From NCBI GenBank assembly GCA_045661245.1, contig JAZRFH010000010.1, positions 18,098 to 82,097 on the forward strand: 64,000 bases of DNA. Reading direction: 5' to 3'. Below, piece after piece: positions 17,753-54,422 of the stretch. How positions within the stretch are numbered: position 1 is the first letter of the stretch; each line of letters starts with the position of its first letter. The position numbers and the translations under genes were made by a program. The notes below the pieces were generated by a model. It saw only the letters and a program-made list of their open reading frames with translations. It did not search any database and was not told the origin of the DNA. The stretch is from Eubacteriales bacterium (lineage in GTDB: Bacteria; Bacillota; Clostridia; Oscillospirales; CAG-272).

Positions 17753-18493
17753 ATGCCGAGATTTTTCGTCTTGCCCACCGACATAGACAGAGAAAACAAA
17801 ACCGCCGCCCTTTACGGCGACGACGCAAGACATATAGCGCGCTCGCTTCGAATGGCTGTAGGCGACCTTATTACGCTTTGCGACGGCGAGGGCACCGAAT
17901 ACACCGCGCGGCTTACCAGAATACGCGACGAGGAATGCTTACTGTCACTTGAAAAGGAATCCCTCTCGGAAGCAGAGCCTCTGGCAGAGATTACTCTGTT
18001 TATGGCTTACCCCAAGGCAGACAAGCTTGAAACAGTTGTACAAAAGGCCGTAGAGCTTGGCTGTACAAGGATAGTTCCTTTTATCTCCGAAAGATGCATA
18101 AAGCGCCCGAATGACGAAAAGAAGGATAAGCAAACCGCGCGTTTATTAAGAATTGCACACGAGGCTGCAAAGCAGTGCGGCAGAGGCAGATTGCCTGCGG
18201 TTGAGAATGCAATAAGCTTTGACGAGTTACTTAAAAGAATTCCCGATTACACTCTCACTCTCTTTTGCTACGAGGGCGAGGGCACAGAGCCTATAAAGAA
18301 CGTGTTAAACCCGAAAGCTACATATAAGACGATTGCCGTTATAGTTGGTTCTGAGGGTGGCTTTTCAGAAAATGAGGCGCAGAAAATTTGCTCTAACGGT
18401 AGTACTGCCGTAGGTCTTGGCAAGAGAATTTTGCGCTGTGAGACCGCGCCCACCGTATGCTTATCTATGATTTGCTACGCGCTTGAGCTTTAA
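17753..18493 (+). CDS. rsmE: 16S rRNA m3U1498 methyltransferase
   Basis: MPRFF, QKAVELG, EAAKQCGR, GSEGGF, LGKRILRCETA. Confidence 0.96.
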   Translation: MPRFFVLPTDIDRENKTAALYGDDARHIARSLRMAVGDLITLCDGEGTEYTARLTRIRDEECLLSLEKESLSEAEPLAEITLFMAYPKADKLETVVQKAVELGCTRIVPFISERCIKRPNDEKKDKQTARLLRIAHEAAKQCGRGRLPAVENAISFDELLKRIPDYTLTLFCYEGEGTEPIKNVLNPKATYKTIAVIVGSEGGFSENEAQKICSNGSTAVGLGKRILRCETAPTVCLSMICYALEL

Positions 18494-28020: not shown

Positions 28021-28145
28021 TCTGGCACTCCTTGTACTGATTTAACAAATTTATTTTATCATAGCACAGGTTAAAAATCAATACGAATAAATAACAAAAA
28101 AATACTTATAATAACCAAAAAACGAGCAAAAGAGGATTAAATACC

Positions 28146-28595
28146 GTGGATATTTATACCAAAGAGGGCAAAACCAAGCTTATAAAGAGGTTTACGCCGA
28201 AAACCAAGCTTTTAAAAACCTGCCTGTTAGCCTTTATCTTCGGCGGAATAATTACCGCACTTGGCGAGGGGTTAAGACAGCTTTTTCTGTACCTGAGTGT
28301 TGAAAAGGACACGGCGGGCCTTCTCGTCAGCCTTATTTTTGTTTTTATAGCTTCCTTTCTTACAGCCGTCGGTATTTTCGACCGTATTGCAAAGCACGCA
28401 GGGGCAGGCACGCTCGTACCGATTACAGGGTTTTCAAACGCGATTACCTCTGAGGCAATGGACTCGGCAAGCGAGGGATATATTCTCGGCGTAGGCGCAA
28501 AAATTTTCACAGTGGCAGGTCCCGTGCTGCTTTACGGCATTACGGCAGGCGTGATTTACGGAATACTTTATTATTTGTTTGGAGTTCTTTTATGA
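28146..28595 (+). CDS. spoVAC: Stage V sporulation protein AC
   Basis: AGAGTLVPITGFSN, IFTVAGPV. Confidence 0.95.
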   Translation: MDIYTKEGKTKLIKRFTPKTKLLKTCLLAFIFGGIITALGEGLRQLFLYLSVEKDTAGLLVSLIFVFIASFLTAVGIFDRIAKHAGAGTLVPITGFSNAITSEAMDSASEGYILGVGAKIFTVAGPVLLYGITAGVIYGILYYLFGVLL

Positions 28596-46593: not shown

Positions 46594-48477
46594 TTAGAAG
46601 ACAAATTTCTTAAGTACAAAGAATAGACCGACAAGAACCGAAACACCGCCGACAGACGAGCCTGCAATTATTATAGCTGTTGTGCTGCCGTTGTTCGCGG
46701 AAAGCATGGGAACGTAAATAAATTCCTCGTTGCCGCAACGCTCGCATACCTTACGGTTAAGACCGTACTCGTTTTCTGTAGCCTCTTTAAATACTGTTTC
46801 TAAACCGTAAAGGTGGTTGAGTGCCTCGGTTACAGAGCCCTCTGTTATAAGCTCGTTGCATGCCTTACAGTGCACGTCACCGGTATAACCGCCCTGAGAG
46901 CAGGTCGCGTCCTTCTTACCAACAAGCTTTGTTTCTGCATGTGTGCAGGGGGTATTGCCGCCTGTATTGCCGCCTGTATTGCCGCCGGGATTGTCACCGC
47001 CTGTATTGCCGCCCGTGTTACCACCGGTGTTGCCGCCTGTTTGGGCAGCCTGTACCAAGTAGAATGAAATTTCAAAAAGGTCGGAGTTTGCAGGAGAGTG
47101 GGTGCTCCAGTTGTCTTTGTCTGCGTACCATTCAAGGTAATTATTGCGCGCAGTGTTTTTCACGTAGAACACTCCTGTTTTGCCTGCTTGGGGTTCAAGG
47201 CTCCAAGACTTATTTGCTCCGGTATCGTTCAGCGAGTTGTAGCTGTCAGCAAGTGCCAAAACCTTTCCGCTTGCAGACGTAAACGTATATGAGCCGTCGC
47301 CGTTTACCTTGACCGTAAATATCTCGTCATTTGTTATGTTATTAAAGTTGACTGTAGTATAATCAACGCCCTTGTTGTAAAAAGAGCCCGCTTCAATTTT
47401 TTGTACCGAGAGAGCCTTATTGTAAGCAGGTGCGCCTATAACAACCTTGTCGCCATCGTTCAGTGTTGTTGTGAGGTTGTAAACCGTACCGGGAGTCGGT
47501 GTAGGAGTTGTGCCACCGGTATTGCCGCCGGTATTACCACCGGTGTTTCCACCTGTGTTTCCGCCTGTGTTTCCACCCGTGCCGTTCTTAGCAGCACCCG
47601 AGGGGGTAGTCATATCATTGGGTACCTGTTTACCAAATATAAGCCAAGCAAGCTCGGGATAATCAATAAATACGTTTCTGTTACCCTGGATATTCTCAAT
47701 AACCTCGTTTCTGCCCATTTCCCAGGTGTCAACGGGGTCAAGCTCACACCACTCAAGCAACACGTCAACGCTTTGGAATACCTTAGTGATGCTTGTAGCT
47801 CCCCAATCACTATTCCATCTTACGTAAACGTAAAGGCAAATTCTTGCAACATCGCCCTTAACGTTGTCAAGGGGTTCGAAATAAGTGGAGTTATACGTAC
47901 CGCCAAGAACACCGACTGCGGGGTCAGTGCCGTATTTTGACGAAGCTCCGGAGCCTGATTCGCCGTACTTTTTATTTCCGCGCGAGCTGTTAACACCCGA
48001 ATCGGAAGGACGGATATGGTGAAGGTCTGCGCCACCACCGCTTGTGTTACCACCGCCAAGGCTCTGGGGCCAAACGTGCTCGCGGTTCCAACCGTTCCAC
48101 TGACTCATAGTAGCATCGTATGAGGTATATATAAGAGAAACCTTACCGTTATTCTGCTCACAATCTGTTTTGTCTGCTTTATAATGACAGTCGTCGTAAG
48201 AAGAGTTTTTTGTGTGAGTAGTCCTCATAAGCGTTTGAAGGGCACTAAACAGTGCGGTCGACGAAAGGTCGTCAAGACTGTCATACGTATTGCTTCCCGT
48301 GTAATAACTGCCCGCACTTGTGCCTGCAAGGCTAGTACACACCTCGTCACGGGTGCCCGAGTTTGAAGTTTTTGAGTATGTAGCAGGTGCCGCAGAAACA
48401 GAAATTGGCGGAATCTGTACCAGAATAACTATTGCGATAATAAGCAGTGCTAATAATTGCTTTATTCTTTGTTTCAT
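46594..48477 (-). CDS. Secreted, membrane-anchored endonuclease I-family nuclease
   Basis: Signal peptide; WNREHVWPQS, DLHHIRP, NSSRGN, KGDVAR, QGNRNVFID; GGNT linkers; C-terminal TM plus KK. Confidence 0.88.
   Translation of the reverse strand: MKQRIKQLLALLIIAIVILVQIPPISVSAAPATYSKTSNSGTRDEVCTSLAGTSAGSYYTGSNTYDSLDDLSSTALFSALQTLMRTTHTKNSSYDDCHYKADKTDCEQNNGKVSLIYTSYDATMSQWNGWNREHVWPQSLGGGNTSGGGADLHHIRPSDSGVNSSRGNKKYGESGSGASSKYGTDPAVGVLGGTYNSTYFEPLDNVKGDVARICLYVYVRWNSDWGATSITKVFQSVDVLLEWCELDPVDTWEMGRNEVIENIQGNRNVFIDYPELAWLIFGKQVPNDMTTPSGAAKNGTGGNTGGNTGGNTGGNTGGNTGGTTPTPTPGTVYNLTTTLNDGDKVVIGAPAYNKALSVQKIEAGSFYNKGVDYTTVNFNNITNDEIFTVKVNGDGSYTFTSASGKVLALADSYNSLNDTGANKSWSLEPQAGKTGVFYVKNTARNNYLEWYADKDNWSTHSPANSDLFEISFYLVQAAQTGGNTGGNTGGNTGGDNPGGNTGGNTGGNTPCTHAETKLVGKKDATCSQGGYTGDVHCKACNELITEGSVTEALNHLYGLETVFKEATENEYGLNRKVCERCGNEEFIYVPMLSANNGSTTAIIIAGSSVGGVSVLVGLFFVLKKFVF
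46951..47040. repeat. 12-bp coding repeat (GGNT)n, second linker
   Basis: TGTATTGCCGCC-type units. Confidence 0.85.
47512..47586. repeat. 12-bp coding repeat (GGNT)n, first linker
   Basis: Tandem GGNT codons with synonymous variation. Confidence 0.85.
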
Positions 48478-48652
48478 TTTATTCTCCTGACAGAGTAAAA
48501 ATTTACTTGCACAGTATAGTATAACATATCGCACAATAAAAGTAAAGCAAAATAATTAAATATTCGACATTTTGGAGAAGGCAAAAAAGAAAAGCCCATT
48601 TTCAAAAAGCAAACGGGCCTTATAAATATAAAAAGTAAATAATTATTTACAT

Positions 48653-49210: not shown

Positions 49211-49336
49211 AATAACCCTTTCAATTAGTGAAATAGTATATCAATATTTTATGTAAGGCAGGGCTTTTTGTTGAAAAAATATCTTGTAAATATGCAAAAT
49301 ATATTGTATAATTAAATAAAAAACTTGGGGGACGCT

Positions 49337-50317
49337 ATGGACGAAAACAAAAGACCCGAATCTATGGAGCGCATAACAACTCGCGCATTGGCAGATGCAT
49401 TTATTGAAAGAGAGGTAGCCAAGGTACGTGCAGAGGTTGGCGACAAAAAGGTGCTTCTCGCACTTTCCGGCGGCGTTGACTCTTCAGTAGTTGCAGCTTT
49501 GCTTATCAAAGCAATAGGAAAGCAGCTTATATCCGTGCACGTAAATCACGGCCTTATGAGAAAGGGTGAGAGTGAGCAGGTTGTAGAGGTGTTCCGTAAT
49601 CAGCTTGATGCTAACCTTGTTTACGTTGACGCGACGGATAGATTTTTGTCCTTGCTTGAAGGTGTAAGCGACCCCGAGAAGAAGAGAAAGATTATCGGCG
49701 GTGAGTTTATTAAGGTTTTCGACGAGGAAGCGGCAAAGCTCTCCGGTGTTGAATTTCTTGCACAGGGAACAATTTACCCGGATATAATTGAGAGCAAGGG
49801 TGTAAAGGCTCACCACAACGTTGGCGGCTTGCCCGAGGATATGCAGTTGAAGCTCGTAGAGCCTGTAAAGCTGCTTTATAAGGACGAGGTACGCGTGGTT
49901 GGTGAGGCGCTTGGGTTGCCGCATAATATGGTATACCGTCAGCCGTTCCCCGGCCCCGGTCTTGGCGTACGTTGCCTTGGAGCTATTACCCGTGACAGAT
50001 TAAACGCCCTGCGCGAGGCTGATGCTATTTTGCGTGAGGAATTTGACAACGCAGGTCTTGCGGGCAAGGTATGGCAGTATTTTATCGCTGTGCCCGATAC
50101 AAAGAGTGTTGGCGTAAAAGACGACAAGCGTTACGAGGGCTGGCCTGCTATTATTCGTGCGGTGAATACAACCGATGCTATGAATGCAACGATTGAGGAA
50201 ATAGATTACTCGCTTCTTCATAAGATAACAGCGCGCATCACGGCTGAGGTTGAGGGCATTAACAGAGTGCTTTACGACCTCACTCCTAAACCTGTAGGAA
50301 CAATCGAGTGGGAATGA
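49337..50317 (+). CDS. guaA: GMP synthase ATP-pyrophosphatase and C-terminal domains (no GATase domain)
   Basis: SGGVDSS, QGTIYPD, HHNVGGLP, PFPGPGL, KPVGTIEWE. Confidence 0.9.
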   Translation: MDENKRPESMERITTRALADAFIEREVAKVRAEVGDKKVLLALSGGVDSSVVAALLIKAIGKQLISVHVNHGLMRKGESEQVVEVFRNQLDANLVYVDATDRFLSLLEGVSDPEKKRKIIGGEFIKVFDEEAAKLSGVEFLAQGTIYPDIIESKGVKAHHNVGGLPEDMQLKLVEPVKLLYKDEVRVVGEALGLPHNMVYRQPFPGPGLGVRCLGAITRDRLNALREADAILREEFDNAGLAGKVWQYFIAVPDTKSVGVKDDKRYEGWPAIIRAVNTTDAMNATIEEIDYSLLHKITARITAEVEGINRVLYDLTPKPVGTIEWE

Positions 50318-50506: not shown

Positions 50507-50638
50507 ATGGCAGACAGTGTATTGAGAACAAAATCCAAGGAATTTGCTAAGGATATCGTTTTTCGAATATTACTCTGTTTTTATAACACAAGCGGTACAC
50601 AATTGACACCACAGATAACAAAAATGCCTTCCCCATAG
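50507..50638 (+). pseudogene. Truncated four-helix-bundle (23S rRNA IVP-like) gene fragment
   Basis: RBS AGGAG; MADSVLRTKSKEFAKDIVF resembles the family N-terminus, then unrelated sequence and a stop after 43 codons. Confidence 0.55.
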
Positions 50639-50743
50639 ATTGAAAGAAGGCATTCTTTATTGTAATTTATCGGAAATTTATTAAAGGGACTCAAGATTTC
50701 GATATGAACGAGAGTCCCAAGCTTTTCACTGCACCAACTGTTT

Positions 50744-50962
50744 TTATCTGTTTTGGTTGTTGCTCTGACTGTTCTGACGATTCTGATTGTTCTGATTGTT
50801 CTGATTATTCTGGTTGTTCTGGTTGTTCTGATTGTTCTGGTTGTTACGGTTATTCTGATTATTCTGATTATTCTGATTATTCTGGTTGTTCTGGCTATTC
50901 TGGTTGTTCTGGCTATTCTGGTTGTTCTGGTTGTTGCGATTGTTCTGGTAATAGTTTTCCAT
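50744..50962 (-). CDS. 72-aa Asn/Gln-rich (QNN)n protein
   Basis: RBS AAGGAAGG before ATG 50962; 9-bp repeats vary mostly synonymously (AAC/AAT); downstream hairpins at 50686-50718 and 50621-50658. Confidence 0.72.
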   Translation of the reverse strand: MENYYQNNRNNQNNQNSQNNQNSQNNQNNQNNQNNQNNRNNQNNQNNQNNQNNQNNQNNQNRQNSQSNNQNR

Positions 50963-51002
50963 AATTAAAAACCTTCCTTTGTGTATTTGCAATTGTTTGC
51001 AA

Positions 51003-51035
51003 GTATAGTTTTTACAAAGCTTATACAAACTATAC
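51003..51035. promoter_or_regulatory. Palindromic bidirectional sigmaG-like promoter
   Basis: + strand GTATA-N18-CAAACTA; - strand GTATA-N18-AAAACTA; arms GTATAGTTT/AAACTATAC. Confidence 0.6.
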
Positions 51036-51060
51036 ATGAAAAAATTCGGGAGGTTTTTAT

Positions 51061-52200
51061 ATGCTTTTAATTCAAAACGGACTGGTTTATACAATGGAGA
51101 GCAACGAAGAGAATTATGTCGACTTGCTTATCGAAAAAGGAAAAATAATACGCATTGCTAAAAAAATAAACCCGACTGACTGTAGGAGAATTATTGATGC
51201 CTCGGGCTTGCGCGTGTATCCCGGTTTTATCGACGCACATAGTCATATCGGAATATCTGAAGAGAAGAAAACAAGCCAAGGTGATAAGTGCAACGAGGGG
51301 ACAAATCCAATTACACCCGCCGTCCGCGCTATCGATGCAATCAATCCAATGGACAGTGCATTTCATAATGCTCTAGCTTCCGGAATAACAGGCGTTATGG
51401 TTGGTCCGGGAAGCTCGAACCCAATCGGTGGGCAATTTGCCTTTATAAAAACGCACGGCAGACGAATTGACGATATGGTTGTAAAGTCCCCGGCTGCTAT
51501 GAAATTTGCTTTTGGAGAAAATCCAATGACAAATTACGGTCCTAACGGAAATATTCCTTCTACACGCATGGGAATTGCATCGTTGATTAGGGAAGAGCTG
51601 ACCCTCGCAAAGCAATATTTCAGCGACAGTAACAGAGCGGAAAAAACCTTTACTATGGAGTGCTATCGAGATTTATTTGAGGGAAAAATACCAATGAAAG
51701 CGCACGTGCACCGTACAGACGATATTTTTACCGCCATTCGCATTGCGAATGAGTTTGGATTAGGGCTCACCTTGGACCACTGTACTGAAGGGCATCTTAT
51801 TGCCGATGCCATAGCTGAGAGTGGTTATCCGGCTATTGTCGGCCCTTCCTTAGCATCGCGCAGCAAGGACGAAGTAAGCCTGTCTGATTTCAAAACTCCG
51901 GGCGAGCTTGAAAAAGCCGGAGTTTTAGTGGCGTTAACAACAGACCACCCTGTATCGAGAATCCAATACCTTCCGCTCTGTGCAGCACTTGCAGTTAAAG
52001 AGGGAATGAGCGAGTGGGGTGCATTGCGTGCAATTACAATTAACGCAGCACGCATCTGCCGTGTCGAGGACCGATTGGGGAGTATAAAAGAAGGGAAAGA
52101 TGCCGATATCGTTATTTATGACGGTAATCCATTACAAATTGCTTCCTCTGTCAAATATACGGTTGTCAATGGAGAAATAGCTTGGCAAGCAAAGACATAG
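51061..52200 (+). CDS. Metal-dependent amidohydrolase
   Basis: PGFIDAHSHIG, HVH, LDH, TTDHP, GSIKEGKDADIV. Confidence 0.9.
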   Translation: MLLIQNGLVYTMESNEENYVDLLIEKGKIIRIAKKINPTDCRRIIDASGLRVYPGFIDAHSHIGISEEKKTSQGDKCNEGTNPITPAVRAIDAINPMDSAFHNALASGITGVMVGPGSSNPIGGQFAFIKTHGRRIDDMVVKSPAAMKFAFGENPMTNYGPNGNIPSTRMGIASLIREELTLAKQYFSDSNRAEKTFTMECYRDLFEGKIPMKAHVHRTDDIFTAIRIANEFGLGLTLDHCTEGHLIADAIAESGYPAIVGPSLASRSKDEVSLSDFKTPGELEKAGVLVALTTDHPVSRIQYLPLCAALAVKEGMSEWGALRAITINAARICRVEDRLGSIKEGKDADIVIYDGNPLQIASSVKYTVVNGEIAWQAKT

Positions 52201-52400
52201 AGTTATATTTAATAAATGTGTAACCTACTGCAAGCATTCAGAAAAATCACCCCTTGCGACAAATCAGCAGTTTCATGTTAATACCTTGTCAGGCGGCTTA
52301 GAGCTATTGCTTTAGGCCGTTTTTTCTTGTAAAAGTAATGGGGTTTTGTAGCAACATAGCATTGCTATAATATGGATTAAAATAATAAAAGCAAAACACC

Positions 52401-52456
52401 TTGAAAAAAAGCTTTTAATATGTTATAATAAAATTTACTGATTAAAGTTACTTTAA
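52401..52456 (+). promoter_or_regulatory. SigmaA promoter with downstream palindromic operator
   Basis: TTGAAA-N17-TATAAT with TG extension; perfect 7-1-7 inverted repeat TTAAAGT-T-ACTTTAA at 52442-52456. Confidence 0.65.
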
Positions 52457-52506: not shown

Positions 52507-53667
52507 ATGGAAAATATCAACCATTTACAGAATGTAATAAAACGTTTTTCTCTCCATGGCAAGGTTACAAGCATCGTTAAAATCAACAAGGGATATATTA
52601 ACTCTACTTACAGAGTAGAAACACTTTCAGAGCACAACCACGTTCATAAATATCTTCTTCAGCGTATCAATACTAACGTTTTTCCAAACGTTGATGCTCT
52701 GGTCAGCAATTTTCAGATAACAACCGAACATTTGTGTAAGAATCTAGAAATGCCCGGGCAAAGAAAGAACGGAGGCGTGCAGACTCTTCGCACAACAAAG
52801 GATGGTAAGCTTTACTTTGAAGATGCCTTCGGGGTATGGCGAATTATGACGTATTTTGATAATTCGTACTCCTTGGATATACCTGACTCGCCCGAGGTGT
52901 TTTACTATGCAGGTGTTACGTTTGGCCGCTTTGCAAAGGCTATGAGCACGGTTGACGTGGATAAAATTCAAGTAGTAATCCCTAACTTTCACAACACAAT
53001 GAGCCGCTACAAGGATTTGGAAGAAGCTATTTTGATTGATAGCCAGGATAGGGTTAAGGAAGTATCGGACGAAATTGCCTTCGTGCGCGCTCATACTGAC
53101 CTGTACGGCAAAATCTCCGATGCCTTGGATAACGGGGAAATTCCTGTCCGTATTTGCCACAACGACTGTAATTTGAATAATATCCTGTTTGACAAAGATA
53201 CGCACCTTCCTGTTGCGGTTATTGATTTGGATACCGTAATGCCGTCCACTCCCTTGTATGATTTTGGTGACAGTATGAGAATCGGCACCAATACTGCCAA
53301 GGACGACGAGAGGGATATGAGCAAGATTTCATGTAATCTTGAGCTTTATGAAATGTATGCTCGCGGTTACCTTGAGGCTTGCGGTGATATACTTACAAGA
53401 GAAGAGCTTGAGCTGTTGCCTTACGCGGCTCTCGTTATCACTGCAGAGGACGCTATCAGATTTTTGACCGACCATATAAACGGTGATACCTATTATCGTA
53501 TTGAATATCTCGGTCAAAACCTTGACAGAGCGCGCAATCAGCTAAAGCTGCTTGAGGATATGGAGAAAAAGCTGCCGGATATCTGTATGATTCTTCAAAG
53601 AATTTATGATAAGCTTGGTCTTGATGCCACGGTTATACAAAATATTAAAGCTGGGAGTATGAAATGA
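52507..53667 (+). CDS. APH-fold anomeric sugar kinase (N-acetylhexosamine 1-kinase-like)
   Basis: GYINSTY, LQRIN, IPNFHNT, HNDCNLNNIL, VIDLDTVMP, RFLTDH. Confidence 0.8.
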   Translation: MENINHLQNVIKRFSLHGKVTSIVKINKGYINSTYRVETLSEHNHVHKYLLQRINTNVFPNVDALVSNFQITTEHLCKNLEMPGQRKNGGVQTLRTTKDGKLYFEDAFGVWRIMTYFDNSYSLDIPDSPEVFYYAGVTFGRFAKAMSTVDVDKIQVVIPNFHNTMSRYKDLEEAILIDSQDRVKEVSDEIAFVRAHTDLYGKISDALDNGEIPVRICHNDCNLNNILFDKDTHLPVAVIDLDTVMPSTPLYDFGDSMRIGTNTAKDDERDMSKISCNLELYEMYARGYLEACGDILTREELELLPYAALVITAEDAIRFLTDHINGDTYYRIEYLGQNLDRARNQLKLLEDMEKKLPDICMILQRIYDKLGLDATVIQNIKAGSMK

Positions 53668-54422
53668 AAGAAATCAGAGCGATTATACCGGCCGCAGGAA
53701 AGGGCAGCCGCCTGCAAAAGATAAGCGGAGACGTTCCTAAGGCGATGTTTTCTGTTTTGAATAGACCGATGATTGAGTTTGTTCTTGATAATATATCCTT
53801 TATAGACAAGAGTCAAACCTATATCGTAGTAGGCTACGGCAAAGAAAAAATTATAGAGCACTTAGGAGAGCCCTTCCATTACGTTGAGCAAAAGCAGCAG
53901 CTTGGTACGGGTCACGCGGTTATGGAGTGTGCCGAGCATTTTGCTGATTTTGACGGCAGTGTTCTAATTACCTTTGGAGATATGCCTCTTTTCCACCGCG
54001 AGGAGCTTCTGGCTATGTGCCGCTTACATATTGAAAATGGTGCCGACTGTACTTTAATGACGGCAGAAAATCCATCGCTCAAAATGTGGGCTCGTGTTAT
54101 TCGTGACGAAAACAACCGTTTTGAGAAAATTGTAGAGGGAAAGGACTGCACTACCGAACAGGCGGCAGTAAAGGAGCTGTTTTCCGGCGTAATGGTCTTT
54201 AACAGCAAATCCCTCTTTAAGATACTCCCGAGTGTTGGTTGCACTAACGTTCAGAAGGAGTATTATTTAACAGAGGTGCCCGAGCTCATGGTTAAAAACG
54301 GCATGAAGGTTGAAACTTATTTTACAAAGGACGGCGACGACCTTCGCGGAATTAACACTCCCGAGGACTTGGAAATCTGCGAGAGCATACTCGAAAAGCG
54401 CTTGCTCTTAGAGGTAAGGTAA
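53664..54422 (+). CDS. Stand-alone GlmU-type sugar-1-phosphate nucleotidyltransferase
   Basis: AAGKGSRL...PK, QQLGTGHAV, GDMPL, NVQKEYYLT, GINT; lacks the acetyltransferase domain. Confidence 0.85.
   Translation: MKEIRAIIPAAGKGSRLQKISGDVPKAMFSVLNRPMIEFVLDNISFIDKSQTYIVVGYGKEKIIEHLGEPFHYVEQKQQLGTGHAVMECAEHFADFDGSVLITFGDMPLFHREELLAMCRLHIENGADCTLMTAENPSLKMWARVIRDENNRFEKIVEGKDCTTEQAAVKELFSGVMVFNSKSLFKILPSVGCTNVQKEYYLTEVPELMVKNGMKVETYFTKDGDDLRGINTPEDLEICESILEKRLLLEVR

Follow-up and report, generated by a model that had tools for sequence, protein, structure and literature searches.

The 64,000-nucleotide stretch of DNA analysed here (the window; positions 18,098 to 82,097 of contig JAZRFH010000010.1 in the Eubacteriales bacterium assembly GCA_045661245.1) contains a small gene for a protein composed largely of asparagine and glutamine, referred to below as the N/Q gene, which lies head-to-head with the gene for a metal-dependent amidohydrolase. 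It is suggested that the two genes form a module specific to spores in a lineage of uncultured, spore-forming Clostridia from the gut, that they are expressed from two overlapping and divergent forespore promoters, and that the small protein could have the role of a reserve. Judged from comparisons of sequence and gene context, this reading as a whole is given a probability of about 55%, and its separate parts, some firmer and some weaker, are considered in turn.

The palindromic, promoter-like element

The small open reading frame (ORF), P0001, occupies positions 50744-50962 on the minus strand and encodes 72 amino acids and a stop codon in a (QNN)n-like pattern. The amidohydrolase, of 379 amino acids, is encoded on the plus strand at 51061-52200, and the gap between the two genes is 98 bp long (50963-51060). 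Within this gap is an imperfect palindrome of 33 bp (51003-51035) that can be read as two fully overlapping, divergent promoters of the forespore type. Towards the amidohydrolase, on the plus strand (51003-51032), a -35 element GTATA (51003-51007) is followed after 18 nt by a -10 element CAAACTA (51026-51032); towards the N/Q gene, on the minus strand (51006-51035), GTATA (51035-51031) is followed at the same distance by AAAACTA (51012-51006). Pairing is found at 13 of 16 positions of the palindrome, and an inverted-repeat search returned arms of 22 nt that are 82% complementary. The pattern ATAGTTT-N12-16-AAACTAT has its sole occurrence in the 1.38-Mb genome at this site. The 98-bp gap contains no sigma70-like promoter, and no Rfam family reached threshold in the locus.

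Alignment of the gaps of paired loci revealed that G-N-A-T-A-G-T-T-T ... A-A-A-C-T-A-T-N-C is kept and that the centre varies freely. A strict pattern, G[ACT]ATA-N17-18-[CA]A[AT]A[ACT]TA, was matched 45 times in the genome compared with about 23 times in mononucleotide shuffles, an enrichment too weak on its own, and a looser motif, GNAT[A/G]-N17/18-xAxAxTA, was therefore scored together with gene-context and ortholog controls. The loose motif stands 21-59 nt before the ATG in 26 of 27 N/Q genes as against 23 of 946 background ORFs, the latter being those of at least 150 amino acids with a ribosome-binding site (RBS) in the window's own genome (G000). It is also present 23-36 nt before the start of all the enzymes (10/10) that belong to the N/Q-linked clade at 67% identity or more, compared with only 2 of 57 distant homologs. 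Two loci, L096 and L100, were left out of the count of ten by an alignment filter, L100 being a match in the two-direction comparison. In that comparison both directions matched in 18 of the 21 non-identical paired loci, the other three were one mismatch off, and the spacer was either 17 or 18 nt. All four bases were seen at position 2 of the -35 and at position 1 of the -10 element and the two arms vary independently, as is expected of free promoter positions.

From these comparisons it seems probable that the promoters are both forespore-type and bidirectional. One mirror-symmetric element would then consist of two promoters of the sigmaF/sigmaG family exactly superimposed, and in each arm the -35 of one (GNATA) would overlap the -10 of the other (xAAA[C/A]TA), so that forespore RNA polymerase could transcribe the N/Q gene by starting to the left or the amidohydrolase gene by starting to the right. 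The two transcripts would be monocistronic and would each stop at a terminator of their own.

The loci that have only one of the two partners are informative in this respect and favour the two-promoter reading. L039 and L042, which have the N/Q gene only, contain GCATA-N18-AAAACTA directed towards that gene, and the opposite -35 has decayed to GCGTA. The enzyme-only loci behave in the same manner: L102 has GCATA-N17-CAAACTA towards the enzyme with TTATA as the opposite -35, and L105 has GTATA-N18-TATACTA towards the enzyme with the other arm no longer readable as a -10. In the unpaired N/Q loci L063 and L064, GAATA or GTATA is followed by N18-CAAAATA without the GTTT extension, which corresponds to the opposite -10 in paired loci.

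A palindrome of this kind might alternatively serve in the main as the operator at which a dimeric transcription factor controls the two genes together, in which case the likeness to forespore promoters would be secondary or coincidental. A 33-bp inverted repeat with a conserved TAGTTT...AAACTA core would suit such a factor, and a dimeric regulator site would also explain why the core is symmetric in L039, L042 and L102, each of which has lost one partner gene. However, the site has no second copy in the genome, no regulator gene is conserved beside the module, whose flanks differ in nearly all loci, and the gap has no other recognisable promoter. The spacing between the arms differs by 1 bp among loci, position 2 varies in one arm independently of the other, the motif retained in L105, L063 and L064 runs in one direction and is not symmetric, and the same motif is found before spoVT, spoVAC, spoIIR and cwlD. 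An operator as the main function of the palindrome is therefore considered improbable, and two superimposed promoters are preferred.

Probable forespore identity of the motif

In the window's genome the loose motif has 43 matches that are followed by an RBS-bearing ORF. Of these ORFs 20 were annotated with NCBIfam, and five of the 20 have a canonical forespore protein as their best match. The matches are to SpoVT (235.1 bits, cut-off 235.9), SpoVAC (147.8 bits, cut-off 164), SpoIIR (142.7 bits, cut-off 151.9), CwlD (206.7 bits, cut-off 221.55) and a SpoIIQ-like M23 protein (84.1 bits, cut-off 250). None of these scores reaches the equivalog cut-off, some falling just short and some well short of it, and the genes are therefore best matches and not formal members of the families. 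The SpoVAC-like ORF is in the window itself, at 28085-28595 (C10:46182-46692 in contig coordinates), and is preceded by GAATA-N17-TATAATA.

Sporulation genes of the same genome include those for SigG (C36:2583-3341; 377.5 bits, cut-off 372), for Spo0A and GPR, for a sigma factor that resembles SigF and for a single small acid-soluble protein (SASP) of the alpha/beta type (C33:382-543), and a SASP is present in 36 of 38 high-quality genomes of the genus. Because these sporulation genes are in the genome and the motif stands before canonical forespore genes, the sequence data indicate that the lineage is a spore former and that the motif marks its forespore genes. With the motif upstream of both, the N/Q gene and the amidohydrolase gene have the sequence character of members of the forespore (sigmaF/sigmaG) regulon.

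The sigmaG consensus of Bacillus subtilis is approximately TGAATA-N17/18-CATACTA, and the module element fits it. The -10 element of L058, GGGAATAATG, is presumably of the sigmaF type, and the words of this element also stand before gpr in G000. Two studies of Clostridioides difficile describe its sigmaF and sigmaG motifs as closely alike and as close to their B. subtilis counterparts (PMC3789822, PMC7438776). The first-pass annotation of this DNA had called the palindrome sigmaG-like in both directions. The forespore-type match in both directions held across the paired loci and the motif was found before canonical forespore genes, but sigmaG and sigmaF are not separated by the motif, and either may be the factor concerned.

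The N/Q gene

Translation of P0001 gave 40 Asn, 20 Gln, 4 Arg, 4 Ser, 2 Tyr, 1 Met and 1 Glu, so that 60 of the 72 residues (83%) are Asn or Gln; the net charge is about +3 and there is no hydrophobic core. The mass estimated from this composition is about 8.7 kDa, and tryptic sites are nearly absent. The DNA that encodes it is a degenerate tandem repeat with a 9/27-nt period (50759-50949). Its RBS, AAGGAAGG (50972-50979, minus strand), is placed 9 nt ahead of the ATG, and 3' of the gene is an intrinsic-terminator-like hairpin of 15 pairs with a T run (50620-50657, minus strand). A terminator-like hairpin is also found 3' of the N/Q gene in L039 and L042.

A Pfam search of P0001 returned no family at E <= 0.001 and the alpha/beta-type SASP profile (PF00269) gave no match; since no Pfam family matched, membership of the SspE family was not supported either. 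Its neighbours in the Protein Atlas were unnamed hypothetical clusters only. In composition (60/72) the protein has the Q/N-rich, low-complexity character by which prion-like or amyloid domains are recognised.

Related ORFs were assembled from 27 loci. They encode proteins of 43-100 amino acids that are always N-rich, and they have an RBS, an ATG, a stop codon and usually a C-terminal R or K, one of these being the terminal residue in 21 of the 27. An RBS-like sequence was a selection criterion for the 27 members and its presence in 27/27 is not independent. Over the 27 members the entropy at codon positions 1, 2 and 3 is 1.20, 0.49 and 1.82 bits, respectively, and Asn is encoded by AAC 530 times and AAT 327 times, and Gln by CAG 336 times and CAA 58 times. 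Four divergent members, L060, L062, L059 and L107, have lost the simple repeat, with sequences such as MENNNRNNEKRKNERENENNRNKQ... (L060) and MNNQKNNQNQQNNRNNQNERNRQ... (L059), and are still N-rich, hydrophilic, of similar length and in the same frame.

It could be argued that the small ORF is untranslated, the 9-nt repeat being a slippage-prone DNA or RNA element and the open frame a by-product of composition. In 23-27 of the 27 copies, three more reading frames through the repeat are open as well, and slippage in units of 9 nt preserves any frame. Openness of the frame was for this reason dropped as evidence of coding. Against this, the ORF has an RBS and ATG at a fixed distance and a promoter-like element and terminator-like hairpin of its own, and the third-position bias of synonymous variation is seen in the N/Q frame only. 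The four members that have moved past the simple repeat, yet have kept the character of the protein, speak in the same direction. We regard an untranslated ORF as highly improbable, and it is very likely, on the evidence of the aligned family, that the small N/Q ORF is a real and conserved gene.

Much of this had been proposed from the single locus. The first-pass annotation had described a 72-residue ORF with 60 Asn or Gln, its RBS and downstream hairpins, a head-to-head amidohydrolase across a 98-bp gap, and a 33-bp palindrome with GTATA-N18-CAAACTA on the plus and GTATA-N18-AAAACTA on the minus strand, and all of these were recovered at the positions given above. Its further statement that variation between the repeats is mostly synonymous is borne out by the codon-position entropies of the 27 members.

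Distribution and pairing

P0001 was searched against 212 other genomes of the genus, 400 of the order and 400 of the rest of the class. The genus gave 14 matches, of which 12 were true small N/Q ORFs, and an ORF in G005 was added via the enzyme search to give 13 genomes. In 11 of these 13 an amidohydrolase ortholog lies head-to-head with the N/Q ORF, the exceptions being G021 and G187. Matches were found in nine genomes of the order and were true in eight, spread over six other families; five of the eight are head-to-head with the enzyme (L056, L057, L059, L060 and L062) and three are unpaired (L058, L063 and L064). No true member of the N/Q family was found in the 400 genomes from the rest of the class. 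The loci related to the module come from metagenome-assembled genomes of uncultured gut Clostridia, Eubacteriales and Acutalibacteraceae. Several candidates, L037 (G218), L045 (G149), L061 (G519) and L195-L198, were dropped as larger or different low-complexity proteins.

The relationship was also examined from the side of the enzyme. A scan of the genome contigs gave 80 enzyme loci, and a divergent N/Q ORF is present in 9 of the 12 with at least 67% identity and in none of the 68 (0/68) at 55% identity or less. A tree of 89 enzyme homologs was inferred by maximum likelihood with a quick search, and support was estimated by the Shimodaira-Hasegawa-like approximate likelihood ratio test (SH-aLRT). 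All N/Q-linked enzymes form one clade of 24 rows with an SH-aLRT support of 98, and the ORF is present in 22 of the 24, a count that takes in L097 and L099, in which the ORF is cut by the end of the contig. The two clade enzymes without an N/Q ORF are L102 and L105. Because all N/Q-linked enzymes fall in one clade, the tree points to a single origin of the link followed by a few losses. The flanks of paired loci are mostly different, 27 of 30 flank clusters being singletons in a crude longest-ORF comparison, and therefore the two genes appear to stay together amid changing surroundings without an accompanying regulator gene.

Two of the checks proposed in the first-pass annotation, namely for an N/Q ORF beside homologs of the amidohydrolase and for conservation of the palindrome, came out in favour of the module (22 of 24 clade rows for the former, a motif match each way at 18 of 21 paired loci for the latter). 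The possibility it had raised that the homologs are never adjacent to N/Q ORFs is contradicted by the 11 paired genomes of the genus.

L039 and L042 are the loci of G021 and G187, which lack the enzyme; upstream of the N/Q gene they have a gene of the creatininase family that points in the same direction. A different observation concerns L056 (G238), from another family of the order, where the amidohydrolase is 85% identical to that of the window, a level of identity like that within the genus. The gene pair may move laterally as a unit.

The amidohydrolase

The enzyme belongs to the amidohydrolase superfamily, with scores of 82.8 bits to PF07969 (cut-off 29.7) and 62.2 bits to PF01979 (cut-off 25). 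Its gene is preceded by the RBS GGGAGG (51048-51053, plus strand) and followed by a terminator-like hairpin (52291-52322, plus strand), and the next gene downstream has a sigma70-like promoter of its own at 52401-52429. The closest solved structure is PDB 3OOQ, which matches residues 3-372 with an E value of 2.9e-90, and the metal-ligand motifs DAHSH, HVH, DH and TDH of the two proteins align. A published function for 3OOQ was not found in the literature that was searched, where its PDB code occurs in one paper, a docking-methods preprint.

Membership of the isoaspartyl dipeptidase family IadA (TIGR01975) was considered and rejected, the score being 41.8 bits against a cut-off of 331.25 and the match restricted to residues 2-63. 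The amidohydrolase may nevertheless have an IadA-like activity. Weaker relatives among the solved structures include Xaa-Pro dipeptidase, prolidase and a Zn-dependent arginine carboxypeptidase, the alignment to the last of these being limited to its N-terminal stretch. Distant homologs of the enzyme are found beside tsaE-tsaB-rimI, MFS transporters, LD-carboxypeptidase, VanY-type carboxypeptidase and tandem paralogs, which provides loose hints to function. The tandem paralogs occur in twos or threes (L111, L112, L136, L138 and L140), some of them beside genes for LD-carboxypeptidase or VanY-type peptidases.

Possible function of the module

Neither protein of the module has a signal peptide, and both the N/Q protein and the enzyme would be expected to accumulate in the spore core. 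There the N/Q protein could act as a small hydrophilic spore protein in the role that the gamma-type SASP has in Bacillus, serving as a reserve rich in amide, at about two nitrogen atoms per residue, and possibly also as a filler that forms a gel or glass. The amidohydrolase would be packaged along with it and, at germination, would degrade either the protein or its deamidated or isoaspartyl peptides. This combination of reserve and hydrolase is put forward tentatively, and at lower odds than the module itself. A more elaborate picture can be drawn in which the spore core is packed with near-pure poly-(Gln-Asn-Asn), a non-homologous counterpart of the gamma-type SASP held as a reversible amyloid-like or gel-like store of amide, which is dismantled by the co-packaged amidohydrolase, both proteins being produced from the one bidirectional palindromic promoter. 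That picture goes further again and is best treated as speculative.

A different role for the N/Q protein should also be weighed. It might be a structural or protective component of the spore, that is, a disordered, polar-zipper, amyloid- or gel-forming filler that immobilises the core, or else a prion-like switch, with an enzyme that is co-regulated for other reasons or that only trims or matures it by removal of the C-terminal Arg or Lys or by deamidation. The extreme content of Asn and Gln (83%), the net charge of about +3 and the lack of a hydrophobic core would suit a filler, as would a repeat number free to vary between 43 and 100 amino acids with the composition kept. Trimming would be in keeping with the R or K that ends 21 of the 27 members and with the Zn-dependent arginine carboxypeptidase among the distant structural relatives, although only an N-terminal stretch of that chain aligns. 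The Asn-rich repeats of the C. difficile protein GerG are reported to gel spontaneously in vitro (PMC5241399), which accords with a protective role. The same source describes these repeats as dispensable for the function of GerG, however, and five loci have N/Q genes free of the enzyme, so maturation by the enzyme is not essential. A structural component with an incidental or maturing enzyme appears somewhat unlikely, and the reserve with its hydrolase, tentative as it is, is retained as the working proposal for function.

There are several observations that weigh against the module as proposed here. The pairing is not obligatory, given that the N/Q gene occurs without the enzyme in L039, L042, L058, L063 and L064 and the enzyme without the N/Q gene in L102 and L105, and the related genomes that were compared are non-independent samples. 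The amidohydrolase reaches no NCBIfam equivalog cut-off, and the neighbours of the wider enzyme family are housekeeping genes or cell-wall peptidases (tsaE-tsaB-rimI, LD-carboxypeptidase, VanY). The symmetry of the TAGTTT...AAACTA core in L039, L042 and L102, despite the loss of one partner, has been referred to already. The motif is unable to tell sigmaF from sigmaG, and the sigmaF/sigmaG consensus used for comparison is approximate, the motifs being shown only as logos in PMC3789822 and PMC7438776. Finally, the textbook sigmaG target, which is the single alpha/beta SASP gene of the genus, has a related but non-identical element that lacks the G of the -35. This element, [T/A][A/C]ATA-N17-xACAATA (TAATA-N17-CAAAATA in G000), is located some 95 nt before the gene and precedes a conserved leader that appears to be structured.

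Other genes and upstream elements

The block upstream of the SASP gene (L048:230-372 on contig C33 of G000; L065-L094) has features of its own. It consists, in this order, of [T/A][A/C]ATA-N17-xACAATA-ATA[A/G]CAGAG, a variable hairpin and, some 30 nt ahead of the ATG, GCTCGATNATATAGAT, an arrangement that suggests a structured 5' leader of about 85 nt. No match to this leader was found in Rfam.

Of the other genes in the window, one at 46594-48534 on the minus strand encodes a 646-residue protein of the Endonuclease_1 family (PF04231), which has, besides a signal-like N-terminus and a membrane anchor at the C-terminus, two low-complexity (GGNT)n linkers and a module rich in Cys. Closer to the module, at 49325-50317, is a gene for a 330-residue protein with the ATP-pyrophosphatase and C-terminal domain of GMP synthase and no glutamine-amidotransferase domain in the ORF; a gene of this type also adjoins the N/Q gene in G021 and G187. 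On the other side, 52507-54422 contains an APH-family kinase (PF01636, no NCBIfam match) that overlaps by 4 nt with a nucleotidyltransferase resembling the N-terminal part of GlmU. In sequence the two resemble a salvage pair of sugar-1-kinase and nucleotidyltransferase, and we take them to be comparable to AmgK/MurU. Just past the end of the window, a 151-residue ORF (C10:82213-82730) is preceded by GAATA-N18-CAAAATA. Its N-terminus had suggested a CotF-like spore protein, and its sole NCBIfam match is a weak one to the ferritin-like EncB (29 bits).

Comparison with known systems

A search of mostly open-access literature found no description of such a protein, of the pairing or of the promoter architecture. 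If the interpretation proves true, the N/Q proteins would be a class of major small spore proteins new to Clostridia, where only the alpha/beta-type SASPs are firmly known, with a dedicated enzyme linked to the class, and a function would be gained for the 3OOQ-like clade of amidohydrolases. The palindrome would be a clean natural case of two alternative-sigma promoters fused into one element, and the protein an extreme natural Q/N polymer for the study of amyloid, gel or glass states in dormant cells. In addition, the motif and the N/Q ORF together could serve as a compact signature of spore-specific genes in uncultured gut anaerobes.

The gamma-type SASP of Bacillales, SspE, is rich in Gln and Asn and is regarded as an amino-acid reserve for germination. 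The N/Q protein is like it in being small, hydrophilic, of low complexity and repeat-containing, with no obvious fold. It differs in that there is no sequence similarity between them, its composition is far more extreme (83% N+Q), and no GPR cleavage motif was recognised in it, no formal scan having been made. It is found, moreover, in a clostridial order and is paired with an enzyme of the amidohydrolase superfamily, unlike a protein that is served by GPR alone. That SspE is generally absent from clostridia, as the first-pass annotation had it, is in print: one paper states that clostridial genomes lack SspE and that SASP genes depend on sigmaG (PMC3533761).

GerG of C. difficile provides a second comparison. 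It is a spore-associated protein with Asn-rich repeats of variable number and a prion-like composition (PMC5241399). The N/Q protein shares with it the Asn-rich repeats that vary in number and, by prediction, the link to spores. GerG is however the larger protein. Its GMPNNMSNNMNSNM repeats, with an Asn content of about 30%, lie between non-repeat regions and are not needed for function. GerG controls the incorporation of Csp proteins and has no evident homology to the N/Q protein. The amidohydrolase, for its part, is most like 3OOQ and the amidohydrolase peptidases of the COG1228 type, given the near full-length match and the aligned metal-ligand motifs, but it belongs to a derived clade which alone has the forespore motif and the N/Q partner.

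The promoter-like element resembles the promoters that sigmaF and sigmaG recognise in the forespore of B. subtilis and C. difficile in its GNATA-like -35, its spacer of 17-18 nt and its CAxAxTA-like -10. The difference is that two such promoters are here superimposed as a palindrome, each arm of 10 nt being a -35 in one direction and a -10 in the other. Symmetry-driven bidirectional sigma70 promoters were reportedly described by Warman et al. in 2021, and are said to have a near-palindromic -10 hexamer and transcription start sites about 18 bp apart. They are alike in that divergent transcription arises from the inverted-repeat symmetry of promoter elements; in the present case whole alternative-sigma promoters (-35 and -10) are mirrored, and the starts would be about 40 bp apart. 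Viewed in this way, the module would belong with two known kinds, the small low-complexity proteins of the forespore and the symmetric bidirectional promoters.

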